Below the pieces are notes generated by a model. It ran no database searches and was not told the origin of the DNA. It saw nothing but the letters and a program-made list of their open reading frames with translations. From positions 17,625 to 57,624 of the forward strand of contig NZ_PXXX01000022.1 of NCBI RefSeq assembly GCF_003367505.1: DNA of 40,000 nt, written 5' to 3'. The stretch is from Lysinibacillus capsici. Its GTDB lineage: Bacteria; Bacillota; Bacilli; Bacillales_A; Planococcaceae. Below are positions 1 through 21,044 of the stretch, piece by piece (positions within the stretch are counted from its first letter, which is position 1; each line of letters starts with the position of its first letter). The position numbers and the translations under genes are program-made.

Positions 1-366
1 ATGAGAGTCTACTACGCTAGTATGACGGGAAATGTCCGACGATTCATCCAAAAAACTGGATTAGATACAACTGACATTTCATGTAATCCAAATCCGAAAG
101 AGCCGTTTGTACTCGTCACATACACTTTCGGATTTGGCGCAGTACCAAAAGAAGTTGACGCTTGGTTGACGCAAAATTATAAGTTATTAAAAGGGGTAGC
201 TGTTAGTGGTAATCGTAACTGGGGCGATAACTACGGAAAAGCTGGTGACTTAATAGCTCGAAAATATAACGTACCTCTATTACACAAATTCGAGTTAGCA
301 GGTACAGACGAAGATGTACAAATTTTTAACGAAAGGTTGCTGATGGTTTGCGATACTACGAATTAA
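1..366 (+). CDS. nrdI: NrdI flavodoxin-like protein (class Ib RNR accessory)
   Basis: N-terminus MRVYYASMTGNVRRF fits the NrdI Y-x-S-x-TGN pattern. It overlaps the nrdE start in the usual nrdI-nrdE-nrdF order. The ATG is at the window edge. Confidence 0.85.
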   Translation: MRVYYASMTGNVRRFIQKTGLDTTDISCNPNPKEPFVLVTYTFGFGAVPKEVDAWLTQNYKLLKGVAVSGNRNWGDNYGKAGDLIARKYNVPLLHKFELAGTDEDVQIFNERLLMVCDTTN

Positions 367-2429
367 ATAACGAAATAATGCTACAAGGCGATAAAGATAT
401 TTACCAATATGAAAAAGATCAAGAAGCTACACGCGCTTATTTTTTGGATTACGTTAATAAAAAGACAATGTTTTTCCATAACTTACGTGAAAAACTTAAT
501 TACTTATTTGAAAACAATTATTACGAACAAGAATTATTCGATCAATACACATTTGAACAAGTAAAAGCAGTCTATAAACGTGCTTATGCAAAGAAATTCC
601 GTTTTCCTTCTTTCATGTCCGCGTACAAGTTTTATAATGACTATGCGTTAAAGACAGATGATGGAGAATGTATTTTAGAACGTTATGAGGACCGAGTTGC
701 AGTAAATGCTTTATTCTTTGCGAAAGGTGATCCGCAAAAGGCGATTGATTACGCGGACTTGCTTATCGAACAAGAATATCAACCAGCGACACCAACATTC
801 TTAAATGTTGGACGAAAACGTAGAGGCGAATTAGTGTCTTGCTTCTTAACAGAGGTAGGTGACAGTTTAAATGATATTAATATGGCGGAATCAACTGCAA
901 AACAACTCTCGAAGTTAGGCGGTGGCGTCTCATTAAACTTATCTAATATCCGCGCCAAAGGTGAAGCCATTAAGGGCATTAAAAACGTTGCTAAAGGCGT
1001 CGTAGGCGTTATGAAAATGCTTGACCATGCTTTCCGGTATGCAGATCAAATGGGTACAAGACAAGGTGCTGGAGCAGTTTATTTAAATGTATTCCACGCA
1101 GACATTAACGATTTTCTTGATACGAAAAAAATTAGTGCTGATGAAGATGTAAGAGTAAAAACACTATCTATTGGCGTTGTTATCCCAGATAAGTTTATTG
1201 AACTTGCTCGTGATAACAAACCAGCATATGTTTTTTATCCACATACTGTTGAGAAAGCAACAGGCGAACGGTTCTCCGATATTGACATATCAGCACGATA
1301 TGACGAATTAGTAACTAATTCTGCAATCCGAAAAGACCGTGTTAATCCTCGTCAATTGCTTGAAAAGATTGCAGCATTACGCTTTGAGTCTGGCTATCCG
1401 TATATCATGTTTAGCGACAATGTAAATAAAACACATGCTTTAAATGGCACGATAAAATTCTCTAATCTATGTAGTGAGATACTGCAACGATCTGAACAAT
1501 CTACTTATACAGATTACGGACAACAAGATGAAATAGGGTTAGATATTTCTTGTAATTTAGGGTCGTTAAATATTGCGAATATCATGCGATTAAAAGACTT
1601 CGAACGTGCAGTATCATTAGCAACAGATGCCTTAACAGTTGTGTCAGAATCAACGAATATTGCTAATGCTCCAGCAGTTTCAAAAGCCAATAAGGAAATG
1701 CGTTCAATTGGTTTAGGAGCTATGAATTTACATGGTTATCTTGCGAGTGTAGGTATTAGTTACGAAAGTCCAGAGGCGATCGAATTTGTAGATGTATTTT
1801 TTGCAGCAGTCAACTATTACTCTATTAAACGATCAATGGAATTGGCAAAACAAAAAGGGTCTGTATTTACTGGGTTTGAACAATCGAGTTATGCAGATGG
1901 TAGTTACTTTAAATCCTACTTAAACAATAGTTATTTGCTAAAAGACGAGTATATCAAATCATTATTTGACGGGATCGTGCTACCAACAACGGAGGACTGG
2001 CTAGAGTTAGCTTCTGATGTAGCTAAGTATGGCTTATATAATGCTTATCGCCTTGCAATTGCTCCAACAGGTTCAATAAGCTACGTACAATCAGCGACAG
2101 CAAGTGTTATGCCGATTATGGAACGGATTGAAGAACGTACTTATGGCAATTCAAAGACATACTACCCGATGCCTAACCTCTCTTATAAAACGTGGGCTTA
2201 CTACAAAGAGGCGTATGAAATGGACATGCGCAAAGTCGTCGATTTAATTGCAACGATTCAACGCCATATAGATCAAGGCATTAGTTTTACGTTATTCTTA
2301 CGTGACACAATGACAACACGCGATTTAACAAAGATTGATTTATATGCGCATCACAAAGGAATTAAGACGCTTTACTATGCACGAACAAAAGATACGGGCG
2401 CAGATATTTGTCTAGCGTGTCAAGTTTAA
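348..2429 (+). CDS. nrdE: Ribonucleotide reductase class Ib alpha subunit
   Basis: 693 aa, colinear with Bacillus NrdE as I recall it (FRFPSFMSAYKFYNDYALKT, QPATPTFLNVGRKRRGELVSCFL, NLCSEI, APTGSISYVQSATASVMPI, C-terminal CLACQV). TTG start. Uninterrupted, with no intron or intein. Confidence 0.95.
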   Translation: MRYYELNNEIMLQGDKDIYQYEKDQEATRAYFLDYVNKKTMFFHNLREKLNYLFENNYYEQELFDQYTFEQVKAVYKRAYAKKFRFPSFMSAYKFYNDYALKTDDGECILERYEDRVAVNALFFAKGDPQKAIDYADLLIEQEYQPATPTFLNVGRKRRGELVSCFLTEVGDSLNDINMAESTAKQLSKLGGGVSLNLSNIRAKGEAIKGIKNVAKGVVGVMKMLDHAFRYADQMGTRQGAGAVYLNVFHADINDFLDTKKISADEDVRVKTLSIGVVIPDKFIELARDNKPAYVFYPHTVEKATGERFSDIDISARYDELVTNSAIRKDRVNPRQLLEKIAALRFESGYPYIMFSDNVNKTHALNGTIKFSNLCSEILQRSEQSTYTDYGQQDEIGLDISCNLGSLNIANIMRLKDFERAVSLATDALTVVSESTNIANAPAVSKANKEMRSIGLGAMNLHGYLASVGISYESPEAIEFVDVFFAAVNYYSIKRSMELAKQKGSVFTGFEQSSYADGSYFKSYLNNSYLLKDEYIKSLFDGIVLPTTEDWLELASDVAKYGLYNAYRLAIAPTGSISYVQSATASVMPIMERIEERTYGNSKTYYPMPNLSYKTWAYYKEAYEMDMRKVVDLIATIQRHIDQGISFTLFLRDTMTTRDLTKIDLYAHHKGIKTLYYARTKDTGADICLACQV

Positions 2430-2441
2430 GGAGGATTCTAC

Positions 2442-3401
2442 ATGACTATTTATACGGCTGCGAACTATGCGGTAGATGACGACTCATTTACCCAGGCTTT
2501 TTTAAAGCAGAATCATTCACAATTCTGGCTACCCGAAGAAATATCGCTAACACCCGATTTATTGACTTGGAAAGCTCTTTCAAAAGAAGAACAAAAAGCA
2601 TATATGCGTGTACTTGGAGGATTGACTTTACTTGATACAGAACAAGGAGTTGGTATACCTCGATTAATTCCTCATATTAAAGGGCATCAACGACAAGCGT
2701 TGCTTACCTTTATGTCAGCAATGGAAAACTCGGTCCATGCCAAGTCGTACTCTAACATCTTCTTAACTTTGGCAAATCGTGAGGAAATTAAAGAAGTATT
2801 CGATTGGGTACGGGAAAATCAGTATTTGCAAACAAAAGCTGACGTTATTGTGACGCAATATAAGGCAATCAAAAACAATGATGATATTTCACTTTATAAG
2901 GCGCTAGTTTCGTCAGTATTCCTTGAATCGTTCTTATTTTACAGTGGTTTCTACTACCCACTGTATATGTACGGACAAGGAAAATTAATGCAGGCTGGGG
3001 AGATCATAAACTTAATTATTCGTGATGAAAGCATACATGGTGTCTATGTCGGTTTATTAGCGCAAGAAATCTATAACCGACACTCATCAGATGTACAAAG
3101 CGAATTGTCTGCGTGGGTACATGAGACACTCGAAAAGCTATATCAGAACGAGGCGTTATATACAGCAGACATTTATGATGATGTCGGTTTGACATACGAT
3201 GTACTTAATTTCGTTCAGTACAACGCAAATAAGGCATTATCTAACTTAGGATTTGACGCTTATTACACACATGACAACTTTAATCCAATCGTTTTAAACG
3301 GACTATCAACGAAAACAAAATCGCATGATTTCTTTTCAATGAAAGGTAATGGGTATAAAAAAGCAACTGTCGAACCAATTCAAGACTCGGACTTCTATTA
3401 G
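2442..3401 (+). CDS. nrdF: Ribonucleotide reductase class Ib beta subunit
   Basis: 319 aa with metal-ligand motifs ([21 protein letters not shown]) and a C-terminal acidic DSDFY tail. SD ggagg lies upstream. Confidence 0.95.
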
Positions 3402-3415
3402 AAAGGAACGATTCT

Positions 3416-3670
3416 ATGGTAAAAGACATCGAGCATCCCGATATAACGCACGCATTGCGAACAGGCCATGATCGGGAAACCTGGCGTAATATACAAAACG
3501 CAAAGCTGCTTACGGAATCAGTACCACGTGATTATTACGGAGACATTATTGACTTAAAGAACGACCATTACGTCGTGATTCCGACAGGCTATAAGATATT
3601 GCACAGTAACTTACAACGTTATTTGGAAGAAAGAAAAGGCTTCGAATTTAATTACGTATTCAGCGATTAG
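3416..3670 (+). CDS. Hypothetical small protein (possibly YqaI-like)
   Basis: 84 aa ORF tightly packed in the operon. The C-terminal pattern YYGD..(D)HYV.....L...LQRYLEE..GFEF resembles the skin/PBSX-type small protein YqaI, from memory only. Confidence 0.55.
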   Translation: MVKDIEHPDITHALRTGHDRETWRNIQNAKLLTESVPRDYYGDIIDLKNDHYVVIPTGYKILHSNLQRYLEERKGFEFNYVFSD

Positions 3671-3681
3671 GAGGAAAACAC

Positions 3682-4335
3682 ATGGGACTGCCTAAAGATA
3701 CGATGTTATACGGATTTGCTGAAAAATTGACGCGAGAACAATGTGAGTATGTCGATAGTATTTTTGATAATCAAGTAACGATTGTAAACGCAAAGGCTGG
3801 GAGTGGTAAGACTACACTTGCAGTTGCCTGCGCAGCACTACTCGGAAAACCTCTCGTATATATTTTCGCTCCAGTCGAGGAAGGCAAGATGGGTTTTCGT
3901 CCAGGTACTCAACGTGATAAAGAAGCTGAATACTATCAACCATTAATTGACGCTCTATATGAAATCGGCGAGAATCCGTCAAAAGTAATCTATGATGCTG
4001 AAAATATCGAAGCACAAAAGCGTGGCGACGTTTGGGTGTATCCTCGGAGTCACATCTTCGCTCGCGGGACGAATATCAAGGATTCGACGGTGATTATAGC
4101 TGAGGCCCAGAATTTTACGCGAGGTGAACTTAAAAAGGTCCTTACGCGAATTCATGATAGCTGTACGGTAATTATCGAAGGACATGACGGCCAGAACGAC
4201 TTGCCAAATCCGAATAAGAGTGGATTTGTACCGTATATCGAACATTTAGCAGCTTATGAATTTGTAAATGTCGTGCGGTTAAAGAAGAACTTCCGAGGTC
4301 GTTTATCGACTATTGCGGATGAAATGACTTGGTAG
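3682..4335 (+). CDS. PhoH-like ATPase
   Basis: Walker A GSGKTTLA, Walker B-like VIIAEAQN, 217 aa, typical phage PhoH size. SD aggagg lies upstream. Confidence 0.85.
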   Translation: MGLPKDTMLYGFAEKLTREQCEYVDSIFDNQVTIVNAKAGSGKTTLAVACAALLGKPLVYIFAPVEEGKMGFRPGTQRDKEAEYYQPLIDALYEIGENPSKVIYDAENIEAQKRGDVWVYPRSHIFARGTNIKDSTVIIAEAQNFTRGELKKVLTRIHDSCTVIIEGHDGQNDLPNPNKSGFVPYIEHLAAYEFVNVVRLKKNFRGRLSTIADEMTW

Positions 4336-4347
4336 GAGGGGATTTCA

Positions 4348-4560
4348 ATGAAACGGTATACAATTGGCTTAAACGTAAACGATTCGTCAGAATTATTACA
4401 AGCAGCTACGGACATTCAAGCGTTCATTGATACGTTAGGTGTCGCAAGTGAGCTAGACATACAAGTGAGTGTTAATCCGTTATTGTCACAATCTGAAAAT
4501 ACTAACGTTATCGGGTTTGCGATGAAAACTGAGGAAGATTACGAGGAGGATGAAGAGTAA
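4348..4560 (+). CDS. Hypothetical acidic protein
   Basis: 70 aa ORF with SD (aggagggg) and an acidic C-terminus EEDYEEDEE. Its stop overlaps the next start. Confidence 0.55.
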   Translation: MKRYTIGLNVNDSSELLQAATDIQAFIDTLGVASELDIQVSVNPLLSQSENTNVIGFAMKTEEDYEEDEE

Positions 4561-4973
4561 TGAACGAACAACAAGCACAAAAAATCGAGAGAGTGGCAAA
4601 AATGTCGCCAATTAACGATAAACTAACAGAAATGTATGATATGCAAACGAAACTAGACCAACGCATTATTACCGAGCGAGGTATATCAAAAACGACTGAC
4701 GAGTGGGTGGTCGGATTAACTATCGCAATGGAATCTGAGATTGACGAGATTCGTCGCGAGGTTAATTGGCGTTGGTGGAAAAATAGTAAGCCGATTGATC
4801 AAACTGCTTTGCAAGAAGAAATCGTGGACGTGTGGCACTTCTTATTATCTCTTTCTAGAGTAGTCGGAATGTCTCCGGACGATATTCATCGCATTTACAT
4901 GGAAAAGAACGCTGAAAATCACGCAAGGCAAAGTGGTACTAGCGAAAAGGAAGGGTATGAGGTATCGAAATGA
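4560..4973 (+). CDS. Dimeric (all-alpha) dUTPase / MazG-like NTP pyrophosphatase
   Basis: Motifs ESEIDEIRREVNWRWWK and EEIVDVWHFLLSLS are typical of dimeric dUTPases of Firmicute phages. Confidence 0.75.
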   Translation: MNEQQAQKIERVAKMSPINDKLTEMYDMQTKLDQRIITERGISKTTDEWVVGLTIAMESEIDEIRREVNWRWWKNSKPIDQTALQEEIVDVWHFLLSLSRVVGMSPDDIHRIYMEKNAENHARQSGTSEKEGYEVSK

Positions 4974-5344
4974 GTGGATGTCCGAATGAATTCGGTATTT
5001 ACAGCAGAATGGTGACTTTAAAAATGCCAAATCATCTCTTTAAAAAGAACGGTGGGTACTATGTTGATAAAACGGAGTGCGATATTGACCAATGTTTAGT
5101 TGATGAAATCCGATTCTTATGGAGTAAAGGAGTTGTCACAACAGGTTCTTGTTGTGGACATGGAATAAATCAAGGAATGATTAATGTGTTAGAGTCAAGC
5201 GTAAATAAAATGATTGAATTAGGTTATGAATTACTAGACATTCCAGAGCCTTTCTGGAAATATTCGTTTATACCAAAATCTAAACACAAACAGGAGAAAC
5301 TCAATGACGAAAATCGAACGCAAAATAAACGTACTAGACGATAA
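4970..5344 (+). CDS. Hypothetical Cys/His-rich protein
   Basis: 124 aa with the motif TGSCCGHG. It overlaps the thyX-like start by 41 nt. No family recognised. Confidence 0.55.
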   Translation: MSGCPNEFGIYSRMVTLKMPNHLFKKNGGYYVDKTECDIDQCLVDEIRFLWSKGVVTTGSCCGHGINQGMINVLESSVNKMIELGYELLDIPEPFWKYSFIPKSKHKQEKLNDENRTQNKRTRR

Positions 5345-6032
5345 AGGGTATGTAATGATCCACGATGTACTTGGAACAGATTTAACGGTAGCAAATGCGG
5401 CTCGCGTAAGTTACGCAAAGAAGTCCGCAACATTGACCGATGGTGATAAGCGATTAATAGACTTTCTAGCGCGGGAGGGGCATACTTCGCCCTTCCGCCA
5501 CGTGATCGCACAATTCGAATTTAATGCGCCATTGATGGTCGCTAGGCAACATTGGAAATACGTTGTAGGATCGTCAATGCTCGAAGCTACTGGAGATAAT
5601 ATGGATGCTTGGAACGAATCGAGTCGTCGTTATGTAACGGAAGAACCGACATTCTACGTACCACAGCCATATGAATGGCGATCAGCACCAGAAAACAGTA
5701 AACAAGGTTCAGGCGATATAGTTCGTTTTGAAATTGGAGAATCTGCAACAAGTGCGCTCATACAACATGTTGATGTATGCATTAAATTGTACGAGGACGC
5801 TATTTCTAGCGGAATTTGTGCTGAGCAAGCACGCCTATTCTTGCCAGCATACGGAATGTACGTTAAATACTACTGGACAGCATCGTTACAAAGCGTCTGT
5901 CACTTCCTAAATCAGCGTTTAGCTCATGATTCTCAAGTTGAGATACAAATGTATGCGAAGGCAGTTCTTGAACTTATAAAACCGCATTTTCCGATCAGTG
6001 TTGAAAAATTAGTATCGGAGACTTCCGAATGA
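5304..6032 (+). CDS. thyX: ThyX-like flavin-dependent thymidylate synthase homologue (divergent active-site motif)
   Basis: Colinear with ThyX (GHTSPFRH, APLMVARQ, NESSRRY, ASLQSVCHFLNQRLAHDSQVEIQMYA). The canonical RHR position reads KYV and is followed by a ~13-aa insertion. SD caggag lies 7 nt upstream. Confidence 0.8.
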   Translation: MTKIERKINVLDDKGYVMIHDVLGTDLTVANAARVSYAKKSATLTDGDKRLIDFLAREGHTSPFRHVIAQFEFNAPLMVARQHWKYVVGSSMLEATGDNMDAWNESSRRYVTEEPTFYVPQPYEWRSAPENSKQGSGDIVRFEIGESATSALIQHVDVCIKLYEDAISSGICAEQARLFLPAYGMYVKYYWTASLQSVCHFLNQRLAHDSQVEIQMYAKAVLELIKPHFPISVEKLVSETSE

Positions 6033-6703
6033 AAAAACTATACGCGTCAGCTATGGCGCTACTCATCGCTGTTACTTTATTTATCTACTTATATAAACCA
6101 CAAGATCATGAACAGCTTTCCGAAAGTCCCACCGTACGCAATTTAGAACACGTAGAATACAATGGATTTAACGCAATATACACGCAAGTTCTTGAAAAGA
6201 AACGCCTACAAGCCGAATCAGAACGAAAAAAGAAACGTCAACAGGCGTTAGAAGAAGCACATAGACTATACCACGCTAAGATTGCAGAGGAAAAGCGTAC
6301 AAGGCAAGAAGAAAAAAGACGAAATGAACTAAAACGAAAAACACAAGAACAAGTAAGTCGAAATGACGACGTTCAACTGACGCAATTATCGATGATAGCA
6401 ACGCACTACACGTCGACATGTAATGGGTGTTCTGGAATAACTGCCACTGGCTATGATGTGCGCCAAACCATATATGCCGAAGGATTAAGAGTGATTGCAG
6501 TTGATCCGCGAGTGATTCCACTAGGTTCAATAGTGCGCATTGATTACCCTAATGGTACTTCGTTTAAGGCTATTTGTGCTGATACAGGTGGGGCAATTAA
6601 AGGACATAAGATTGATGTACTTGTTTCAAACATTAATGAGGCTTACTCATTAGGAAAACAAACAGTAACAGTAACTATACTTAAAAACGGAAAGGGACGA
6701 TGA
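6029..6703 (+). CDS. Membrane-anchored 3D-domain protein (MltA/YuiC-like cell-wall-binding or lytic fold)
   Basis: N-terminal TM segment and a K/R/E-rich coiled coil. The C-terminus THYTSTCNGCSGITATGYDV...VIAVDPRVIPLGS...CADTGGAIKGHKIDV is typical of the 3D domain. Confidence 0.8.
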   Translation: MKKLYASAMALLIAVTLFIYLYKPQDHEQLSESPTVRNLEHVEYNGFNAIYTQVLEKKRLQAESERKKKRQQALEEAHRLYHAKIAEEKRTRQEEKRRNELKRKTQEQVSRNDDVQLTQLSMIATHYTSTCNGCSGITATGYDVRQTIYAEGLRVIAVDPRVIPLGSIVRIDYPNGTSFKAICADTGGAIKGHKIDVLVSNINEAYSLGKQTVTVTILKNGKGR

Positions 6704-6706
6704 TAC

Positions 6707-7183
6707 ATGGTAAAAGCACAGGAAGGCGATTTGATTCGAATTGTTTCAGTACCAGAAGATTGGTCGTACGATGTTGGAGGAATTTATGAGGTAATTAGTA
6801 TTTCAAACGAAGGCTATCCTCGATTTTACATCGATGATACCGAAGATATTTATTATGCACTACCTGGACAGTATATGATTCATCGCAAAGCTGGCGAAGA
6901 AGATGATCGAGACAAATTAATACCAAGAGAAGTCGCAATTAAAAACGCTGCAGACGCTTTAGGCGACTTAATAATCCGTAAAAATCACGATTACGGAGAT
7001 AGTTTCTCGCAACAGTACGATAAATACGGACTTATGAGCGCTTTAATCCGAATGGATGATAAACTGCGTAGGTTAGAGACTTTACAGGGCGGAGACAAAG
7101 CGAAAGTCAGCGAAAGCATTTCGGATACCCTCTTAGATTTAGCTGGATATGCATTGTTGACATATGTAGAGACGCAGAAATAA
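6707..7183 (+). CDS. DUF1599-like (all-alpha NTP-PPase-related) protein with an N-terminal small beta domain
   Basis: The C-terminal pattern KNHDYGDSF...YG...L.R.DDKLRRL resembles DUF1599 / nucleotide-modification-associated domains. Tentative. Confidence 0.6.
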   Translation: MVKAQEGDLIRIVSVPEDWSYDVGGIYEVISISNEGYPRFYIDDTEDIYYALPGQYMIHRKAGEEDDRDKLIPREVAIKNAADALGDLIIRKNHDYGDSFSQQYDKYGLMSALIRMDDKLRRLETLQGGDKAKVSESISDTLLDLAGYALLTYVETQK

Positions 7184-7205
7184 CGTGAATTAAATATGAT
7201 TAATA

Positions 7206-7246
7206 GCCAACCTAGCGGAATAAAGCCGTGATGGTTGGCGAGTTTT
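7206..7246 (+). terminator. Weak hairpin after the early nucleotide-metabolism operon
   Basis: GCCAACC (7206-7212) pairs with GGTTGGC (7233-7239), followed by gagttttgacgttt. The loop is long (20 nt). Confidence 0.35.
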
Positions 7247-7419
7247 GACGTTTAGGGGGACTCATTTTGGTCAGATACATTGCTCAAGATGCGTATAACC
7301 AGGCAATATACTTTTCTGGAGAAATAACTACTTGCATAACTACTAACGTAGGGAAACGTGGCAGGAACGGTATAAATATTATAGAGCTTTACGAAATAAA
7401 TGAAATGGAGGACTTTATA

Positions 7420-8928
7420 ATGCCGTATGTTAAACATAAGAAAGAAAAAGAAGAAATTATTATTAAGTCTTTCACTTACGCATCAGCATTCGCAGGTATC
7501 GGCGGCATGACTCTCGGACTTAAACCGTTAGGTGGCGAAGGAGTTATCGCATGGGAATATGATCCGACAGAAAAGCGACGCCAATACGCACAGGACGCTC
7601 ACAAACTGTTGCATCCTGAAATACCCATACATGGAGACATTTGCGAAGCTAATACAGATGAGTTACCCGACTTTGACGTATTCTGCTTTACTCCGCCATG
7701 CCAAGCGTTTTCAGTTGCTGGCAAACGAGGCGGATTCGATGATACTCGCGGTACACTCACATTTGAGGCGTTACGAATAGCACAAGCGAAAAAGCCGAAG
7801 ATTCTCTTTATGGAAAACGTTAAAGGTCTCGTAAATCATGATAAAGGGAATACGATGGGGACTATTATTCACGCGATTAATGAAATCGGCTATACAGTCG
7901 ATTTTACCGTTTTAAATTCGAAATACTTTGATGTAGCGCAGAATCGTGAACGCGTCTACTTAATCGCATTTAGAGACGATTTAATCTCGCCAGAGCCGTG
8001 GAATGACGTAAAGGGTACTACAATGCTGCCGAAAGCAAAGCGTCGTTATCAGGAAGAGGGCGCAAGAACGTTTAATTTCGATTGGCCAGAGCAAACGGAA
8101 GTACTAACTAGGTTGCGTGATTTCTTAGAGCCTATCGTCGATGAAAAGTATTATATTGACGAGGAAAAAACGGCTAAGCTAGTTGCGCAGTTAGAAGAAA
8201 AGGCGGATGGAATCGTGATTAGAGAGGCGACTAACAAGGGCTACGCCGTAGCTGCGGAGGGAGACGCCGTTAATATTCAGTTCCCTAACAGCAAAACTCG
8301 CAGAGGACGCGTGGGTAAGCAGATGGCTAATACGCTAGAGGCGAATGGGTGCAATCAAGGCGTTGTGGAGCGTATTGAACAGTTCTCTAAAGGAGACGGA
8401 ATAAGCTGTTGTATAGACGCAAATTATGCGAAAGGTACATCACCTGGAGACGTCGGTAAAGGACGTCGTACACATATCGTAGAAGATTCTCCGATAATGC
8501 TCGGTCATATCGACTTAAAAGGTCACGACGCTATTAAGAGGGTTTACAGTCCGACAGGGCAAGGCCCGACATTAACGACTATGGGCGGAGGACATCGTGA
8601 GCCAAAAATTGTAGAAGAAATTCGTCCAGTATTAACACCAGAACGCCTTGAAAAACGTCAAAATGGACGTAGATTCAAAGAGGACGGAGAAGAATCATTC
8701 ACACTCACGTCTATTGATCGACATGGCGTAGCAGTCGGAGAATATCCGAAATATCGAATCCGCAAGCTAACTCCGCGAGAGTGCCTACGTCTGCAATCCG
8801 TTCCAGAGGACATTATTGACGCTTTATCAACGCATTTTAGCGACAGTCGTTTATACCACTTTGCCGGAAATGGCCTCACAACAAAGGTAATTACAGCGAT
8901 TGGCGAACGCTTAATTAAGTATTTATAG
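7420..8928 (+). CDS. DNA (cytosine-5) methyltransferase with an enlarged, probably multi-module target recognition region
   Basis: Motif I FAGIGG, motif IV PPCQAFS, motif VI ENVKGL, motif VIII QNRERVYLI, motif IX RKLTPRECLRLQSVP, motif X GNGLT. About 290 aa lie between motifs VIII and IX. The start is taken at ATG 7420 (SD ggagga upstream), not the upstream in-frame extension from 7267. Confidence 0.9.
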   Translation: MPYVKHKKEKEEIIIKSFTYASAFAGIGGMTLGLKPLGGEGVIAWEYDPTEKRRQYAQDAHKLLHPEIPIHGDICEANTDELPDFDVFCFTPPCQAFSVAGKRGGFDDTRGTLTFEALRIAQAKKPKILFMENVKGLVNHDKGNTMGTIIHAINEIGYTVDFTVLNSKYFDVAQNRERVYLIAFRDDLISPEPWNDVKGTTMLPKAKRRYQEEGARTFNFDWPEQTEVLTRLRDFLEPIVDEKYYIDEEKTAKLVAQLEEKADGIVIREATNKGYAVAAEGDAVNIQFPNSKTRRGRVGKQMANTLEANGCNQGVVERIEQFSKGDGISCCIDANYAKGTSPGDVGKGRRTHIVEDSPIMLGHIDLKGHDAIKRVYSPTGQGPTLTTMGGGHREPKIVEEIRPVLTPERLEKRQNGRRFKEDGEESFTLTSIDRHGVAVGEYPKYRIRKLTPRECLRLQSVPEDIIDALSTHFSDSRLYHFAGNGLTTKVITAIGERLIKYL

Positions 8929-15896: not shown

Positions 15897-17453
15897 ATGC
15901 AAGAAACGGGAACTGTCACCTACACATATGACGCATTTAAACCTGGCGAACAATTTCCGCCAGCTAACGCAATTGAACGTATAGCAAAGTATCGACGTAT
16001 GAAAAAGTTATATGACGGAAAACAGTCCGAACTATATGATAGAGCAACAGCGCTCCTAAAAGATACGCCACATGCTAAACAATTACAGTCACTCTATATT
16101 GCAGCCAATATTGCCGACATCATTGTTACGAAAGCAAGTGATTTACTTGTCGGAGAACCACCAATCTTCGATAGCGGATTAGCAGACGATACGGAGCAAC
16201 AATTTGCAATTAACTCCTACGTTGAGGAAAACGATCTTGTTAAGTTAATTCACGAATCTGCGCTTGCTAATGGTTATCGTGGCGATTCATGGATTAAAGT
16301 TCGTTACGACTATCGCCAGGACTATAGCGCTCTAACAATGAGAGGCCTACCTATCCCAGACGATGCGGTAATGGAGCCTATTATCGAACATATTGCCGCA
16401 GACTGTGTATTCCCAATTACAAGTGACGGTAACGTGAAGAAGTTTAAGTCAGTAGTCATTGCAAGCGTAGAATGGGTAGTTTCTAAAAAGGAAGAAACAC
16501 CGTACTTAAACGTTGAGCACCACCTGCCAGGCTATATCATTAATGAGCGATATAAACTTACGACTTATGAAGGTGGAGTTGACAACAAATACGGCTATCC
16601 AGTACAGCTTTTCTTAATTGATAAAAAGGTCAGCGATAGCGAAATTGTTCCGACAGGAGTTCCGCACTTACTCGTTCATCACATTCCATATAAATCAACG
16701 GACGACCAATGGGAGGGTAAAGGAACATTAGAAGTGCTAGAAACGATTTTAATTGCGATAAATGACCGATTAGCGCAGCTCGATTATGTTCTATGGAAGC
16801 ATAGTGATCCGACAGCGTATGGACCAGAACTAGGGACGCATGGTAACGCAAGATTAACAGGCGCTTATATTCCTTTAACTGCCGAAGATAAAACACCAGG
16901 CTATATGACGTGGGATGGACAGTTGAATAGTGCATTTAAAGAACTTGAAACATTGATTGGCATGGCGTTTCAAATCGCAGAAACTCCGCAATGGCTATTC
17001 GGTACTGTACTTGGAGATCAAAACGCTGGAGGAACAGGCACATCGCATACAGATGGCGCTGCTATTAAAGCGCGCTTTATGCCAATATTGACGAAAGTAG
17101 CTCGTATTAGAACGCACTACGACCGCGCTCTACGAGATGCACTATATAACTGCCAATTGCTTGATATAGCGCATGGCGAAGCTAATTTCGAAGCAGTCTA
17201 TCCGGTTATTCACTGGCAAGATGGCTTACCTCATTCCGAAAAAGAGCAAGCCGAAATTATGGCAATTCGTACTGGCAATAAGCCGACAATTGACGTAGCT
17301 ACAGCGATTAAACGTATGGACGGTGTAGACGACATTCAAGCTACCGAAATCATGACGCGGATTGATGCCGATACAGAGCGTGAAGTTGGTACAGTCGATG
17401 CTTCCATCTTTAATGACCCTTATACAGAAATGGACGAAGGGACTGACGCCTGA
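15897..17453 (+). CDS. Portal protein
   Basis: 518 aa immediately after terL, with size and position typical of a portal. The strong SD at 15851-15860 is better placed for in-frame ATC 15867 (see findings). Confidence 0.85.
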   Translation: MQETGTVTYTYDAFKPGEQFPPANAIERIAKYRRMKKLYDGKQSELYDRATALLKDTPHAKQLQSLYIAANIADIIVTKASDLLVGEPPIFDSGLADDTEQQFAINSYVEENDLVKLIHESALANGYRGDSWIKVRYDYRQDYSALTMRGLPIPDDAVMEPIIEHIAADCVFPITSDGNVKKFKSVVIASVEWVVSKKEETPYLNVEHHLPGYIINERYKLTTYEGGVDNKYGYPVQLFLIDKKVSDSEIVPTGVPHLLVHHIPYKSTDDQWEGKGTLEVLETILIAINDRLAQLDYVLWKHSDPTAYGPELGTHGNARLTGAYIPLTAEDKTPGYMTWDGQLNSAFKELETLIGMAFQIAETPQWLFGTVLGDQNAGGTGTSHTDGAAIKARFMPILTKVARIRTHYDRALRDALYNCQLLDIAHGEANFEAVYPVIHWQDGLPHSEKEQAEIMAIRTGNKPTIDVATAIKRMDGVDDIQATEIMTRIDADTEREVGTVDASIFNDPYTEMDEGTDA

Positions 17454-18733
17454 TGCGTGAAGTACCTCAGCCAGATTACGATTATGATGTTAAAAAGATA
17501 CAAAAAGCTTATACAAAAGCATTAAAAGACGTAAAAAATGAACTTAATAACTTATTTCTTACGGATTTCGAGAGCGCGCAGATCATCGCCGTTGAAAAGT
17601 CTATCCGTAACATATTATCCGACATTGAAAAATACGGAAATGAATGGTCTGCCGTCGCCATAACTAAATCAGCAACAGAAGGTATCGCATCGACTATTTA
17701 TACTTTAGAGCTTACTAAGTCTTATGAGGATGCTCTTAAAATTGTAAAATTTAATACGGTAAATAAACGACTTATTGCTGCAGCTATAGCAGATACTCAG
17801 TCAGATTTACTCGCAATAACGCAAAACATGGAGCGACAAGCAAAGATAGCAATTAGAAAAGCAACGGCCGAAGCCATGCGCGCTAAACTTACGTCTGGTA
17901 TTAACGCTACATCTGACATATCAAAAGAGATACGGGAACGTATCATTAATGCCACCGGCGTTGCGATTATTGACTCTAGGGGGAATCGATGGAAAGTTGA
18001 AAACTACGCAGATGTAGTCGCCAGAACTAATATGATGAACGCGCATCGCGAAGCAAGTATTAACGAAGCGTTATCGGAAGAGTCTTACTATGGTCGAATT
18101 AGTCGTCATGGAGCTAAGGACGCTTGCAGAGAATATGAAGGTAAAATCGTAAAATTAGTAGCAGATGCACCTGGAGATTACCCTTACATTGGCGATATAC
18201 CAAGAAAAAAACTGTTCCATCCTCGTTGCAAACATTTGGTCAGCCCTTTGCGTGATCCAGAGAAGTATAATAACCCAAACGTATGGGAGAAAAAACCAAC
18301 AGAATCAACACTTAAACATGCTAATCTAGGAGACTTTACGATAAAACCTCGCACACAAGAGATTTCTAAAATGAAAAGTGGAGGGCATGGTCAAGATAAT
18401 ATTAGTTTCTTAAAAGAAAATAATATTGATTACAATATTGAAAAGATTTTTTCTAACGGAGTTCGCATAGGTAACGTTCCTAGTCATAAGTCTAAAACAA
18501 AGAAAACTGGAGTAGGGCAGTCATGGTTTCCTGAAAATTGGACTAAAGATGATATTGAAAAAGCAGGTTTACATGTAGCCAACAATCCTGATAATAAAAT
18601 TGTTAACGGATTTCAAATATTTGGCGTTTACAAGAATATTGAAATTGGTGTATTTTTAAACTTAGACAATAATAAAGTTATCAGTACTATTTTCCCTACA
18701 AATAAGCAATCTCATTTAGAGGAAGGTGATTAG
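17453..18733 (+). CDS. MuF/SPP1 gp7-like head morphogenesis protein fused to a C-terminal EndoU-like toxin domain
   Basis: The MuF core ends at FHPRCKHLV (~aa 270). C-terminal ~150 aa carry SGGHGQ...KSKTKKTGVGQSWFPENWTKDDIEKAG...ISTIFPT, resembling bacterial EndoU-type RNase toxin domains. DNA from ~18290 is visibly more AT-rich. Confidence 0.8.
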   Translation: MREVPQPDYDYDVKKIQKAYTKALKDVKNELNNLFLTDFESAQIIAVEKSIRNILSDIEKYGNEWSAVAITKSATEGIASTIYTLELTKSYEDALKIVKFNTVNKRLIAAAIADTQSDLLAITQNMERQAKIAIRKATAEAMRAKLTSGINATSDISKEIRERIINATGVAIIDSRGNRWKVENYADVVARTNMMNAHREASINEALSEESYYGRISRHGAKDACREYEGKIVKLVADAPGDYPYIGDIPRKKLFHPRCKHLVSPLRDPEKYNNPNVWEKKPTESTLKHANLGDFTIKPRTQEISKMKSGGHGQDNISFLKENNIDYNIEKIFSNGVRIGNVPSHKSKTKKTGVGQSWFPENWTKDDIEKAGLHVANNPDNKIVNGFQIFGVYKNIEIGVFLNLDNNKVISTIFPTNKQSHLEEGD

Positions 18734-18735
18734 AT

Positions 18736-19038
18736 TTGATTAACACAGGTAACATTACGAATATTATTGAGAAAATGAAAAAATTGCACATAAACGATCC
18801 CGCAATCGAAAATTATTGGAATCAGTTGGTTTTAGAATTTAATGATGAAAAAGAAACAATTCATTTTTTGGATACATGTACCGAAGAAGAAGCTTCTTGG
18901 ATTTCATCAATTTTTGACGACTTGGCACACGTATTTCAAAGTAAAGAATACGCTGATTGCCTCAAAAGACTTGATAAAAAATATCCTAATTTACTAATAT
19001 CGCTCGATATAGAAATAGCAGAATCTTATCTTTCTTAA
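18736..19038 (+). CDS. Candidate immunity protein for the MuF C-terminal toxin
   Basis: 100 aa, acidic. TTG start 6 nt after SD aaggtga, which lies inside the toxin 3' end. AT-rich like the toxin domain and followed by a terminator. Confidence 0.5.
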   Translation: MINTGNITNIIEKMKKLHINDPAIENYWNQLVLEFNDEKETIHFLDTCTEEEASWISSIFDDLAHVFQSKEYADCLKRLDKKYPNLLISLDIEIAESYLS

Positions 19039-19039
19039 A

Positions 19040-19077
19040 ACCGCACTCTGAGAAATAAATGAGTTGCGGTATTTTTA
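19040..19077 (+). terminator. Rho-independent terminator
   Basis: ACCGCACTC...GAGTTGCGGT followed by atttttat. Confidence 0.7.
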
Positions 19078-19153
19078 TGTCCGAACGGAAAGGACGTTAA
19101 ATAATAACGGAAACTACAGCCTACGTAGGCTCAAAAAACGGAGGTAATACGCT

Positions 19154-19876
19154 ATGATTAACAAATTAAACGCATTATTAACGCTAAACCTACAATATTT
19201 TGCAGAAGACGGCGAACCAGAAGCGCCTGAGACGAATCCAGACGGACAACCGCCCGCTGAATCGCAACTCGAATCGTCTGAGAGCGCAGAAAAGACGTTC
19301 ACACAAGCGCAAATCAACGAGATGATTACAGACCGAATCAAGCGAGAGCGTAAGAAATTTGCAGATTACGACGATTTAAAAGCAAAACTTGCAGAGTTTG
19401 AATCGCAAGCAGAAGAAAAGCGTCAGTCGGAATTAACTGACTTAGAGAAGGCGCAAGAACAGGCGAAACAATTCGAGGCACAATTAGCAGAATTAACGGC
19501 ACAACTCGAAACCGAACGCAATAATGCGCGTCAACAAGCAATTAAGAACGAATTTATTAAGGTAGCATCAAGCGCAAATATTATCGACATTGACGCAGCT
19601 ATTGCATTGTCCGATTTATCCGTCGTAGAAATCGGTGAAGATGGCAAAGTTAACGGAGTCGACGACATTATTAAGTCGCTTGTTGAAAATAAACCGTACC
19701 TGGTAGCGAAGAAACAGACGCAACCTATAGGTACTGCTACAAATGGCGGCACTGGCGGACATTCCGAAAAGACGGCCGATCAATTACTCGCAGAAGCAGC
19801 CGAAAAAGCACGTCGAACAGGCTTACTAAAAGATAAAGCTGCCTATGCACAATTAAAAAAGCAACTTGGTAAATAG
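19154..19876 (+). CDS. Scaffolding protein
   Basis: 240 aa, acidic N-terminus, long coiled coil (AEEKRQSELTDLEKAQEQAKQFEAQLAELTAQLE), located just before the major capsid gene. Confidence 0.75.
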   Translation: MINKLNALLTLNLQYFAEDGEPEAPETNPDGQPPAESQLESSESAEKTFTQAQINEMITDRIKRERKKFADYDDLKAKLAEFESQAEEKRQSELTDLEKAQEQAKQFEAQLAELTAQLETERNNARQQAIKNEFIKVASSANIIDIDAAIALSDLSVVEIGEDGKVNGVDDIIKSLVENKPYLVAKKQTQPIGTATNGGTGGHSEKTADQLLAEAAEKARRTGLLKDKAAYAQLKKQLGK

Positions 19877-19958: not shown

Positions 19959-21044
19959 ATGACAACGTTACAGAATCAAATCGTAGGTAAAAAAGAATCA
20001 GTTACAGACGAATTATTACTTTTAAATCCACACCAAACACCAATGATTAGCTTAGTCGGCTTTGGTGAACCTGTGTCACAAGTAGAGCATCAGTGGTTTG
20101 AGGACGAAATGTTTGCAGATGAAACAACTGCAACAGCAGCTTTAGTTGATGCAACAACAATCACAGTTGCAGACGGTTCTATTTTCGAGCCTAAGCACGT
20201 TGTAAAAATCGGTGAGGAGTTACTTTTAGTTACAGCTATTAATGCAAACGAATTAACAGTTACTCGCGGATACGCAGGAACTACAGCCGCAGCCGTAGTA
20301 GATGGTGCTAAAGTAGAGTTCCAATTTGTTGAAGGTGTAGAAGGAGCAGATGCTCGTAAAGCACGTTACAAATCTCGTAAACGTGTATCTAACTTAACGC
20401 AAATTTTCGATGAAACAGTATCAATTTCAGGTACAGCCGCAGCAACTTCTGAATACGGCATTGATGATCTTTACGAATACGAAAAACAAAAGAAACTATT
20501 AGAGCTTGCATTACAACTTGAAAAAGCAGTAATCAACGGTGTGAAATACGAATCTCCAGACGGTAAAGTACGTCAAACAGGCGGTATCCGTAACTTTATT
20601 AAGACAAATGTAATTAATGCTAACAATGCTACATTAACGCTTAATATGTTGGGTGATGCGTTCCAAGCTATTTATGAGGCAGGTGGTTTCGCAACAGGCG
20701 GTAACTACAAAATTGTTGTTGGAGCTAAACAAAAGCGTGCTATCTCGGCTGCTGACGTTGACAAGATCAATATCACTCGCCAAGATAACGGTCGTGGTCA
20801 AGTTGTGGATCACTTCTTATCAGACTTCGGTTCTGCAGAAATCTTACTAAATCCTAACGTTGGTCCAGACGAAGTGTTTATCATTGACGCTAATCGTACA
20901 GAAATCAAGCCGTTAAAAGGTCGCGACTTTGCACATACGTTCTTAGGTATCAAGGGAGACTATCTTGAAGGTCAGATTGTTGGTGAGTTCTTATTAGAGT
21001 TCAAGCAAGAGAAAGCGCACGCTCGCATTAAGGGCTTAAAATAA
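19959..21044 (+). CDS. Major capsid protein
   Basis: 361 aa. Called from its position after the scaffold, its high-expression context (SD aaagggg), and a hairpin downstream. Confidence 0.8.
   Translation: MTTLQNQIVGKKESVTDELLLLNPHQTPMISLVGFGEPVSQVEHQWFEDEMFADETTATAALVDATTITVADGSIFEPKHVVKIGEELLLVTAINANELTVTRGYAGTTAAAVVDGAKVEFQFVEGVEGADARKARYKSRKRVSNLTQIFDETVSISGTAAATSEYGIDDLYEYEKQKKLLELALQLEKAVINGVKYESPDGKVRQTGGIRNFIKTNVINANNATLTLNMLGDAFQAIYEAGGFATGGNYKIVVGAKQKRAISAADVDKINITRQDNGRGQVVDHFLSDFGSAEILLNPNVGPDEVFIIDANRTEIKPLKGRDFAHTFLGIKGDYLEGQIVGEFLLEFKQEKAHARIKGLK

Follow-up and report, generated by a model that had tools for sequence, protein, structure and literature searches.

An EndoU-type RNase domain on a phage head protein of the MuF superfamily and its candidate immunity partner in Lysinibacillus

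What is the role of an RNase-like domain attached to a phage head protein, and of the small acidic protein encoded immediately behind it? The question is raised by a stretch of 40,000 nucleotides from Lysinibacillus capsici (contig NZ_PXXX01000022.1, positions 17,625 to 57,624; hereafter the window), in which the gene next to the phage portal gene, muf2::endoU, encodes a MuF-type minor capsid protein with an added C-terminal domain and is itself followed by an open reading frame (ORF) for a protein of 100 residues. Positions below are those of the window, and the structural genes and the cassette discussed all lie on its forward strand. A first-pass annotation, made from the sequence alone, had read the locus as a head-morphogenesis protein fused to an EndoU-like toxin, with a coupled immunity candidate. 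The analysis reported here makes it quite probable that this is a MuF-family polymorphic toxin cassette carried by a Lysinibacillus-type phage, with the small acidic protein as the immunity partner of the RNase.

The EndoU domain of the fusion protein

The fusion gene (17453..18733, 426 aa) yielded two Pfam matches, to Phage_min_cap2 and to EndoU_bacteria. The EndoU-type RNase toxin domain (residues ~283-426, 18299..18733) was delimited by the PF14436 match, residue conservation, an AlphaFold2 model and Foldseek comparison. In the profile search which the first-pass annotation had proposed, residues ~289-416 matched EndoU_bacteria (PF14436) with 48.3 bits when the full protein was the query and 52.1 bits when the domain was, both well above the Pfam gathering score of 25.3, and the motifs by which an EndoU-like C-terminus had been suspected (SGGH, HKSKTKKTG, QSWFPENW, DDIEKAG and ISTIFP) were all found. 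Across 43 homologues of the C-terminal domain, H289 (codon at 18317-18319), G293, the GGH triplet at 310-312 (H312, codon at 18386-18388), R338, G340, K350, QSWFP at 356-360, W363 and A371 are invariant; H345, T412 and P415, the last two within T412-I-F-P415, are nearly so. The Tox-EndoU signature has been given as H, H, [SNT], [SNT] (PMC3482391), and the hallmark of EndoU enzymes as two N-proximal catalytic His together with a C-terminal strand bearing an aromatic-Pro pair (PMC7297114). Residues H289, H312, S357 and T412 agree with both descriptions, and the conservation pattern shows the predicted catalytic signature to be intact. Enzymes of this type cut RNA in a metal-independent manner, leaving 2',3'-cyclic phosphates (PMC3482391).

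The AlphaFold2 model of the domain reached a predicted local distance difference test score (pLDDT) of 90.8, the first 10 residues being of low pLDDT, and the sole high-probability matches returned by Foldseek were EndoU enzymes, the CdiA-CT EndoU toxin 5hkq_A and nsp15; the modelled fold is the one expected of PF14436 members. Neither the single domain nor a profile of 38 sequences reached an EndoU structure when the PDB was searched by sequence, for which reason the active-site residues are not placed one-to-one on 5HKQ. Beyond MuF proteins, the same EndoU clade was found behind N-termini of the LXG/PT-TG, RHS and WXG100 types, as expected of a toxin domain that is shared between delivery systems. 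These data bear directly on the proposal that the C-terminal domain has lost catalysis and serves the head structurally, as an appendage that binds RNA or DNA. We give it hardly any credence, in spite of the precedent of the inactive PBECR domain described in the MuF protein of phage Mu (gp30) by Iyer et al. (PMC5512222), considering that the two His and the Ser/Thr positions of the signature are invariant or nearly so, that a dedicated partner protein nearly always accompanies the EndoU domain, and that close relatives of the phage build heads without it.

The head protein itself is of a somewhat different kind than was first supposed. The MuF2, or Phage_min_cap2, minor capsid domain occupies residues 1-270 (17453..18262; PF06152, PHROG 4611), and residues 42-236 matched PF06152 with 36.1 bits at a Pfam cutoff of 26.3, while in PHROGs the N-terminus matched family 4611, 'minor head protein', at 3e-42. 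The Phage_Mu_F profile suggested for the check (PF04233, the SPP1 gp7 family) remained silent in the Pfam search of this protein, as did the NCBIfam search. According to Jamet et al. (PMC5576092), PF06152 corresponds to 'MuF2' and belongs to the same superfamily as Phage_Mu_F; it is one of the N-terminal domains (PF04233, PF06152, MuF3 or MuF4) by which MuF polymorphic toxins are recognized. Hence, the description of a normal MuF/SPP1 gp7-type protein running up to FHPRCKH was right as to the superfamily and the motif, which is located at residues 255-261 (the end of the domain also contains LRDPEKYN), and wrong as to the family, PF06152 taking the place of PF04233; judged by its profile matches, the window protein is MuF-type at the superfamily level only. 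Residues 271-282 (18263..18298) form the junction, or linker, at which homology to toxin-less relatives stops in the DNA alignment.

The genomic position of the gene corresponds to that of MuF polymorphic toxins as well (Jamet et al., 2017), being directly 3' of the portal gene (15897..17453, 518 aa), whose 3' end overlaps the muf start codon. The window portal is 87-89% identical to those of the related loci L001, L003 and L004, which have PF05133 SPP1_portal matches. Upstream, the structural module includes the genes of the small (13066-13437) and large (14085-15833) terminase, and downstream those of the scaffold (19154..19876; PF06810 Phage_scaffold matches on its homologues) and of the SU10-type major capsid protein (MCP; 19959-21044). 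The order terL-portal-muf-scaffold-MCP is kept in L001-L004, L018 and L020.

The small downstream protein and its linkage to EndoU

The candidate cognate immunity gene (18736..19038, 100 aa), supported as such by homologues standing behind EndoU elsewhere, begins 2 nt past the stop codon of the toxin gene and falls well within the limit of 150 aa for the ORF expected downstream of a MuF toxin. Its description in the first-pass annotation proved accurate in every particular: the ORF starts at TTG, its product is acidic (pI 4.5, net charge about -10), and its Shine-Dalgarno (SD) sequence AGGAAGGTGA (18720..18729) is located in the final codons of the toxin gene, ahead of the TAG stop (18731-18733) and at a spacing of 6 nt from the TTG at 18736. 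In the homologues an ATG start codon aligns exactly with this TTG, which speaks for the start as called. L001 and stand-alone copies of the gene share the SD block, and its placement in the last codons of the toxin implies, as far as can be read from the nucleotide sequence, that translation of the two genes is coupled. The terminator noticed behind the small ORF was recovered too, as a hairpin at 19040-19070 followed by a T-run (-12.2 kcal/mol, z = -2.94 vs shuffles); the whole terminator-like element, ACCGCACTC...GAGTTGCGGT with the T-run (19040..19077), marks the end of the cassette and was missed by the automatic terminator scan because its loop is 12 nt long. The hairpin is kept in L001, and it is not found in the cassette-less L003 and L004. 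A promoter scan placed several sites resembling -35/-10 elements in the AT-rich 3' end of the toxin gene, ahead of the small ORF; their count, 11 vs 7.9 +/- 2.6 expected, is not significant, and an independent promoter of the immunity gene is therefore not claimed.

In searches of Pfam, NCBIfam, the PDB and BFVD the small protein of the window had no match, and among 30 members of its family none exceeded the Pfam threshold, one sub-threshold match being to Imm68 (E 0.0011). The model of the protein is an all-alpha six-helix bundle (pLDDT 91.4), and neither by sequence nor by fold does it fall within the EndoU-linked immunity families CdiI-STECO31, SUKH, Imm-SuFu and Imm28. A profile search of 1.84 billion representative proteins recovered 350 clusters at E <= 1e-3, mostly of ~100 aa, as the family of the small protein. 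Within it, the domain also occurs fused behind a CdiI_4 immunity domain, a HAD_SAK_2 domain or DUF6678, or as three tandem copies in one protein (examples P0293, P0205, P0203, P0177 and P0185). The HAD_SAK_2 domain belongs to 'Swiss Army Knife' RNA-repair proteins, and a fusion to an RNA-repair domain is intriguing for the partner of an RNase. 'Orphan immunity' and 'polyimmunity' patterns have been described for polymorphic toxin systems (PMC3482391), and, by their domain architecture and genomic placement, the CdiI_4 fusions, the tandem repeats and the stand-alone copies considered below are patterns of these two kinds.

The linkage of the small gene to the toxin was assessed by comparison of loci. 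The gene is present in all MuF2-EndoU loci (the window, L001, L018, L020 and the Paenibacillus terrigena prophage L002/L017/L021) and absent from the toxin-less ones. A census was taken from the toxin side, the 30-sequence immunity alignment being too diverse for locus scanning, and comprised 133 loci of the EndoU clade (53 viral and 80 metagenomic), 125 of them with assessable downstream sequence. Measured from the end of the toxin ORF, a family member starts at -16 to +98 nt (median 18) in 121 of these 125 loci, some of which are near-duplicates, i.e., the independent observations are fewer than 125. Thereby the coupled immunity candidate of the first-pass annotation has gained strong support of a comparative kind, the gene being missing wherever the toxin domain is missing and following the EndoU clade nearly everywhere else. 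The 45 distinct long toxin ORFs included 26 with Phage_Mu_F, 11 with Phage_min_cap2, 3 with LXG + PT-TG, 1 with RHS and 1 with WXG100; since the small protein is found with MuF, LXG and RHS N-termini alike, the partner tracks the toxin domain and not the delivery domain.

The closest homologous pair found resides in an LXG locus of the type VII secretion system (T7SS) of Listeria welshimeri (L010), with the same gene order, spacing and low GC content as in the window. Its EndoU is 58% identical to the window domain, and the 104-aa ORF behind it is 40% identical to the window small protein (BLASTP 2e-18, hhalign 99.1%). Unlike the window toxin, it is a stand-alone orphan of 138 aa downstream of a full-length LXG-Colicin_E5 toxin, and its delivery, if any, would follow recombination onto an LXG/T7SS carrier. 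A Ribonuclease-Barstar cassette adjoins this module. Genomes of Lysinibacillus, Solibacillus, Gottfriedia and Bacillus contain the small gene in stand-alone form, lacking any EndoU within 5-6 kb. In the Gottfriedia and Bacillus chromosomes (L014-L016) the neighbours of these copies are not recognisable immunity-gene arrays, and a search upstream of the stand-alone copies for a remnant of the toxin 3' end revealed only the SD block in common, whose retention is explained by its function, and no clear footprint.

The same observations allow one to weigh the possibility that the small ORF encodes a chaperone or adaptor which folds or stabilises the toxin or loads it into the procapsid, similarly to the DUF1795/Eag-type adaptors. 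Tight linkage, translational coupling to the toxin and the lack of resemblance to known immunity families would all suit such a role. Adaptors, however, track the N-terminal trafficking domain, whereas the small gene tracks the toxin domain across MuF, LXG and Rhs proteins; its copies are found without a nearby toxin in chromosomes and satellite-like elements, and among its relatives there are fusions to the CdiI_4 immunity domain and tandem repeats of the polyimmunity kind. Considering this, we regard an adaptor function as very unlikely. The small protein probably works like an immunity protein and belongs to an unnamed family.

Three loci with unusual arrangements were noted along the way. 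In the P. terrigena prophage (L002 ~5265-5573) an intact frame of ~100 codons has no ATG, GTG or TTG near its start, and it was missed by gene callers because the canonical start codon is lacking; translation may begin at an ATT or ATA codon behind the SD sequence GGAGAGG. In a viral contig (L022:2123-3931), the portal is followed by a 602-aa MuF-like protein with a different C-terminus and weak, sub-threshold matches to MPTase-PolyVal and Phage_Mu_F; a 38%-identical homologue of the small protein lies ~1 kb downstream (L022:4968-5294) with no EndoU present, and may be an immunity gene that remained after replacement of the toxin domain. Finally, a 220-aa in-frame fusion (L011:4001-4663) of the N-terminal ~115 residues of the EndoU clade with a near-complete homologue of the small protein, found in a toxin/immunity array beside an Endonuclea_NS_2 fragment and a YezG-like gene, looks like a deletion by which a cassette has decayed.

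Cassette exchange, carrier phages and delivery

The low-GC cassette as a whole, comprising the toxin domain, the immunity candidate and the terminator (18271..19100), was delimited by GC content, presence/absence polymorphism and the mosaic breakpoint. Its GC of 0.314 compares with 0.393 for the whole window and falls into the 4th percentile of 830-bp windows. The AT-richness claimed for ~18290 to 19040 is therefore real, although not unique, as GC is low in two other patches of the window too (~10.1-12.3 kb and 36.9-39.9 kb). In every carrier phage the GC of the cassette is 7-12 points under that of the flanks, and it equals that of the homologous Listeria LXG locus (0.31).

A search of 5.8 billion proteins placed closest to the fusion protein a homologue from Lysinibacillus xylanilyticus (94% identical), named 'EndoU domain-containing protein' by NCBI, and recovered two more MuF2-EndoU fusions, 68% and 47% identical. 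It also recovered ~100 relatives (50-81% identical) of just 272-290 aa, ending in '...LRDPSKYNE'; the ~100 close relatives at 70-81% identity, 274 aa in length, are without the toxin domain and without the small ORF. A conserved N-terminus with alternative or absent C-termini, which is the mark of polymorphism in such toxins, is evident among these relatives. Other C-termini of the same MuF2 lineage were observed in P0066 (510 aa), P0076 (582 aa) and P0096 (557 aa), whose N-termini are 53-63% identical; P0076 has precomputed matches to PF06167 and PF07737 (metallopeptidase / anthrax-toxin lethal-factor-like). By the domain content of these relatives, the C-terminal position of MuF2 shows itself able to accept several toxin types.

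Near-isogenic phages reveal the exchange most directly. L001 possesses the EndoU extension, a 100-aa ORF (57% identical to that of the window) and the same terminator, whereas in L003 and L004, having a 274-aa MuF, the scaffold gene directly follows muf, with neither cassette nor terminator. At the DNA level L001 and L003 are 85-93% identical across the portal gene and up to ~630 nt into muf, and 57-60% identical in the last ~190 nt of the MuF-coding part; there the cassette is present in the one and absent from the other, and in the scaffold gene identity is back to 92%. Homology with the cassette-less relatives restarts just 5' of the SD sequence of the scaffold gene. Such a pattern is, on alignment evidence, the recombinational replacement of a C-terminus typical of polymorphic toxins, and the exchangeable toxin/immunity cassette anticipated in the first-pass annotation finds its support in a recombination breakpoint located within the 3' end of muf. 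Taken together with the Listeria and Rhs loci, these comparisons show the toxin and the predicted immunity gene to be one exchangeable module, recombining between phages and between MuF1, MuF2, LXG/T7SS and Rhs carriers.

As regards delivery, MuF proteins are portal-associated head components, each SPP1 capsid containing 1-2 portal-bound copies of gp7 (as cited in PMC5576092), and the fusion protein is therefore expected in virions. Ejection of such proteins together with the DNA has been proposed by Jamet et al. (PMC5576092) and Iyer et al. (PMC5512222). We envisage the following course of events for the window phage. A MuF protein encoded right after the portal and extended by an EndoU-type, metal-independent RNase domain would be made late in infection together with its immunity protein, and the MuF domain would bring the RNase into the procapsid. 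The translationally coupled acidic protein of 100 aa would most likely bind and neutralise the RNase, protecting the virion-producing cell, lysogens and other carriers of the gene. On entering the next cell along with the DNA, the RNase would cleave RNA there (tRNA or mRNA most likely) and leave 2',3'-cyclic phosphate ends, unless that cell contains the immunity protein.

A different target has been suggested for proteins of this kind: Iyer et al. (PMC5512222) read MuF-fused enzymatic domains, BECR RNases included, as early anti-defence effectors injected by the phage, and Jamet et al. (PMC5576092) offered a model involving the lysogeny decision. The EndoU domain might accordingly act on RNAs of the phage's own host or of its defences (tRNAs, crRNAs, mRNAs), aiding takeover or biasing the choice between lysis and lysogeny, with the small protein merely timing or limiting it. 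The presence in the phage of other genes for host takeover and nucleotide metabolism is in line with such a role. Outside the structural module, the window has genes for ribonucleotide reductase, PhoH, dUTPase, thymidylate synthase, a DNA methyltransferase and an M15 endolysin. However, the same toxin/small-protein pair is used by LXG/T7SS and Rhs antibacterial toxins, stand-alone immunity copies on other elements and chromosomes form the pattern expected of warfare between strains, and the existence of ~100 close relatives without the domain means that it is not needed for infection. We consider a host effector possible but unlikely, and prefer to see in the pair an antibacterial toxin and its predicted immunity protein.

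The lifestyle of the phage was approached through its relatives, as neither an integrase nor a repressor was seen in the 40-kb window. Relatives extend beyond both ends of the window (L023:1242-8512, L068:1-10000). Past its end, next to an anchor gene 90% identical to that of the window, they carry a serine resolvase, an Alp7A/ParM-like actin, an XRE repressor and a Phg_2220_C protein, and 5' of its start a DnaB-like helicase, a Toprim primase and PolA; many of them are separate contigs of 55-64 kb, and the P. terrigena homologue sits in an 819-kb scaffold. Because of the resolvase, the Alp7A/ParM-like actin and the XRE repressor, the phages of this group, ~57-62 kb in size, are probably temperate and maintained as plasmids, which would accord with reports that MuF toxins are confined to temperate phages. 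Searches of INPHARED phages (DNA and protein) and PLSDB plasmids (DNA) gave no match to this lineage.

Plasmid-type maintenance genes in the relatives would also suit a module for plasmid addiction, i.e., post-segregational killing on behalf of an extrachromosomal prophage, the fusion to MuF being incidental; toxin-antitoxin modules on plasmid prophages are mentioned by Jamet et al. (PMC5576092). Such a role is nevertheless highly improbable, in our opinion. The toxin is the C-terminus of a late structural protein encoded in a head-morphogenesis operon, and its production in lysogens is thus unlikely; the same fusion is present in the integrated prophage of P. terrigena and in ~37 other MuF fusions; and the immunity gene is located 3' of the toxin, which is the order of polymorphic toxins, whereas antitoxin genes usually come first.

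Two further regions of the window deserve mention. The stretch 348-8928 encodes the large and small subunits of class I ribonucleotide reductase, a PhoH-like protein, dUTPase, thymidylate synthase, a peptidase-like protein, a DUF1599 protein and a DNA methyltransferase of 553 aa. In the very low-GC stretch at 36.9-39.9 kb (minimum 0.28), a 110-aa ORF (38427-38759) resembles, by eye, the C-terminal ~90 residues of the M15 endolysin (36899-37567), with the common motifs 'GYK.EGQVI.P', 'DDD.MKFT', 'AVRDY..QAV' and 'LIDKS.LEKFD.GT.T.GDF.GL'; it may be a duplicated cell-wall-binding domain.

Some of the stand-alone small genes (68-70% identical) are situated directly after an SU10-type capsid gene in elements of ~10 kb, found in Lysinibacillus fusiformis (L006-L009) and Solibacillus (L012), at ~6001-6303 / 5001-5300. 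These elements contain genes for a DnaD-like replication initiator, HTH regulators, scaffold-like, capsid and tape-measure-like proteins and a small terminase, with an additional integrase in L006, and possess no portal, MuF or large terminase gene. Their capsid protein is 54% identical to that of the window phage, and ~180 bp at 75% DNA identity are shared with the non-coding interval between the terS and terL genes of the window (13711-13889). Judged by gene content, they resemble phage satellites, or else reduced prophages, with a relationship to the window phage group. One may speculate that satellites travelling in helper-made particles, which would carry the MuF::EndoU protein but not the helper's immunity gene, need an immunity copy of their own to protect new hosts; this is a rather doubtful conjecture, and if it were true, a virion-borne toxin would be a selective force shaping satellite genomes.

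Relation to known systems and significance

MuF polymorphic toxins with EndoU_bacteria domains and small downstream ORFs have been described (Jamet et al., 2017, BMC Biol, PMC5576092; see also Zhang et al., 2012, PMC3482391), and the statement of the first-pass annotation that MuF-toxin fusions are a known class in temperate Firmicute phages is in agreement with the literature, EndoU_bacteria being listed among the toxin domains of this class (PMC5576092). The text of the supplements of Jamet et al. contains no 'EndoU' entry. The window locus resembles the described systems in having PF06152 ('MuF2') after the portal, a variable C-terminus of a shared toxin type, an ORF of less than 150 aa next to it and a Firmicute host; it differs in the apparently plasmid-like lysogeny and in a partner family without a name or a model. 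Later experimental work on MuF toxins concerned (p)ppApp synthetases and ADP-ribosyltransferases, not EndoU, and no experimentally studied MuF-EndoU member was found in the searched literature.

Among characterized toxins, the best structural match to the model is CdiA-CT(STECO31) of Escherichia coli (PDB 5HKQ), which shares with the window protein the EndoU fold and a small gene just downstream. CdiA-CT(STECO31) is an antibacterial RNase with a His-His-Lys/Thr active site, neutralised by CdiI (Michalska et al., 2018, summarised in PMC9086364). The resemblance is limited to 12% sequence identity and a TM score of ~0.5; the STECO31 toxin acts on tRNA-Glu(UUC) and is delivered by a type V (contact-dependent inhibition, CDI) system, while the window toxin would be delivered by a phage head, and CdiI(STECO31) has a mixed alpha/beta fold unrelated to the predicted all-alpha fold of the window small protein. 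SPP1 gp7 and phage Mu gpF belong to the same superfamily as the window MuF and occupy the same genomic position; gp7, however, is a PF04233 and not a PF06152 protein and has neither a toxin extension nor a partner gene. The LXG tRNase pair YxiD-YxxD of Gram-positive bacteria was considered as a closer relative and ruled out, as it combines Ntox50 with an Sm-like immunity protein.

What was known before is the existence of MuF toxins, defined in 2012-2017 with EndoU_bacteria named among them, and the labelling of the closest homologue by its EndoU domain at NCBI. Added here from comparative genomics are the definition of the predicted partner family and its ~97% linkage to the EndoU clade across four delivery architectures, together with pairs of near-isogenic phages of which one has the cassette and the other lacks it, a probable lifestyle as plasmid prophages and the stand-alone copies of the small gene in satellite-like elements. 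MuF toxins are common in Firmicute prophages, and the function of a head-carried toxin is still a matter of hypothesis. The phage lineage described here is a convenient system for testing it, as phages of the L001 and L003 types differ essentially by the cassette alone; it offers a confident toxin model, clear candidate catalytic residues to mutate and a partner family recognisable elsewhere. The near-universal linkage between the EndoU clade and the ~100-aa helical family could justify the naming of a new immunity family, and a defined partner family would allow hundreds of genes now labelled 'hypothetical', in phages as well as in T7SS and Rhs loci, to be better annotated.

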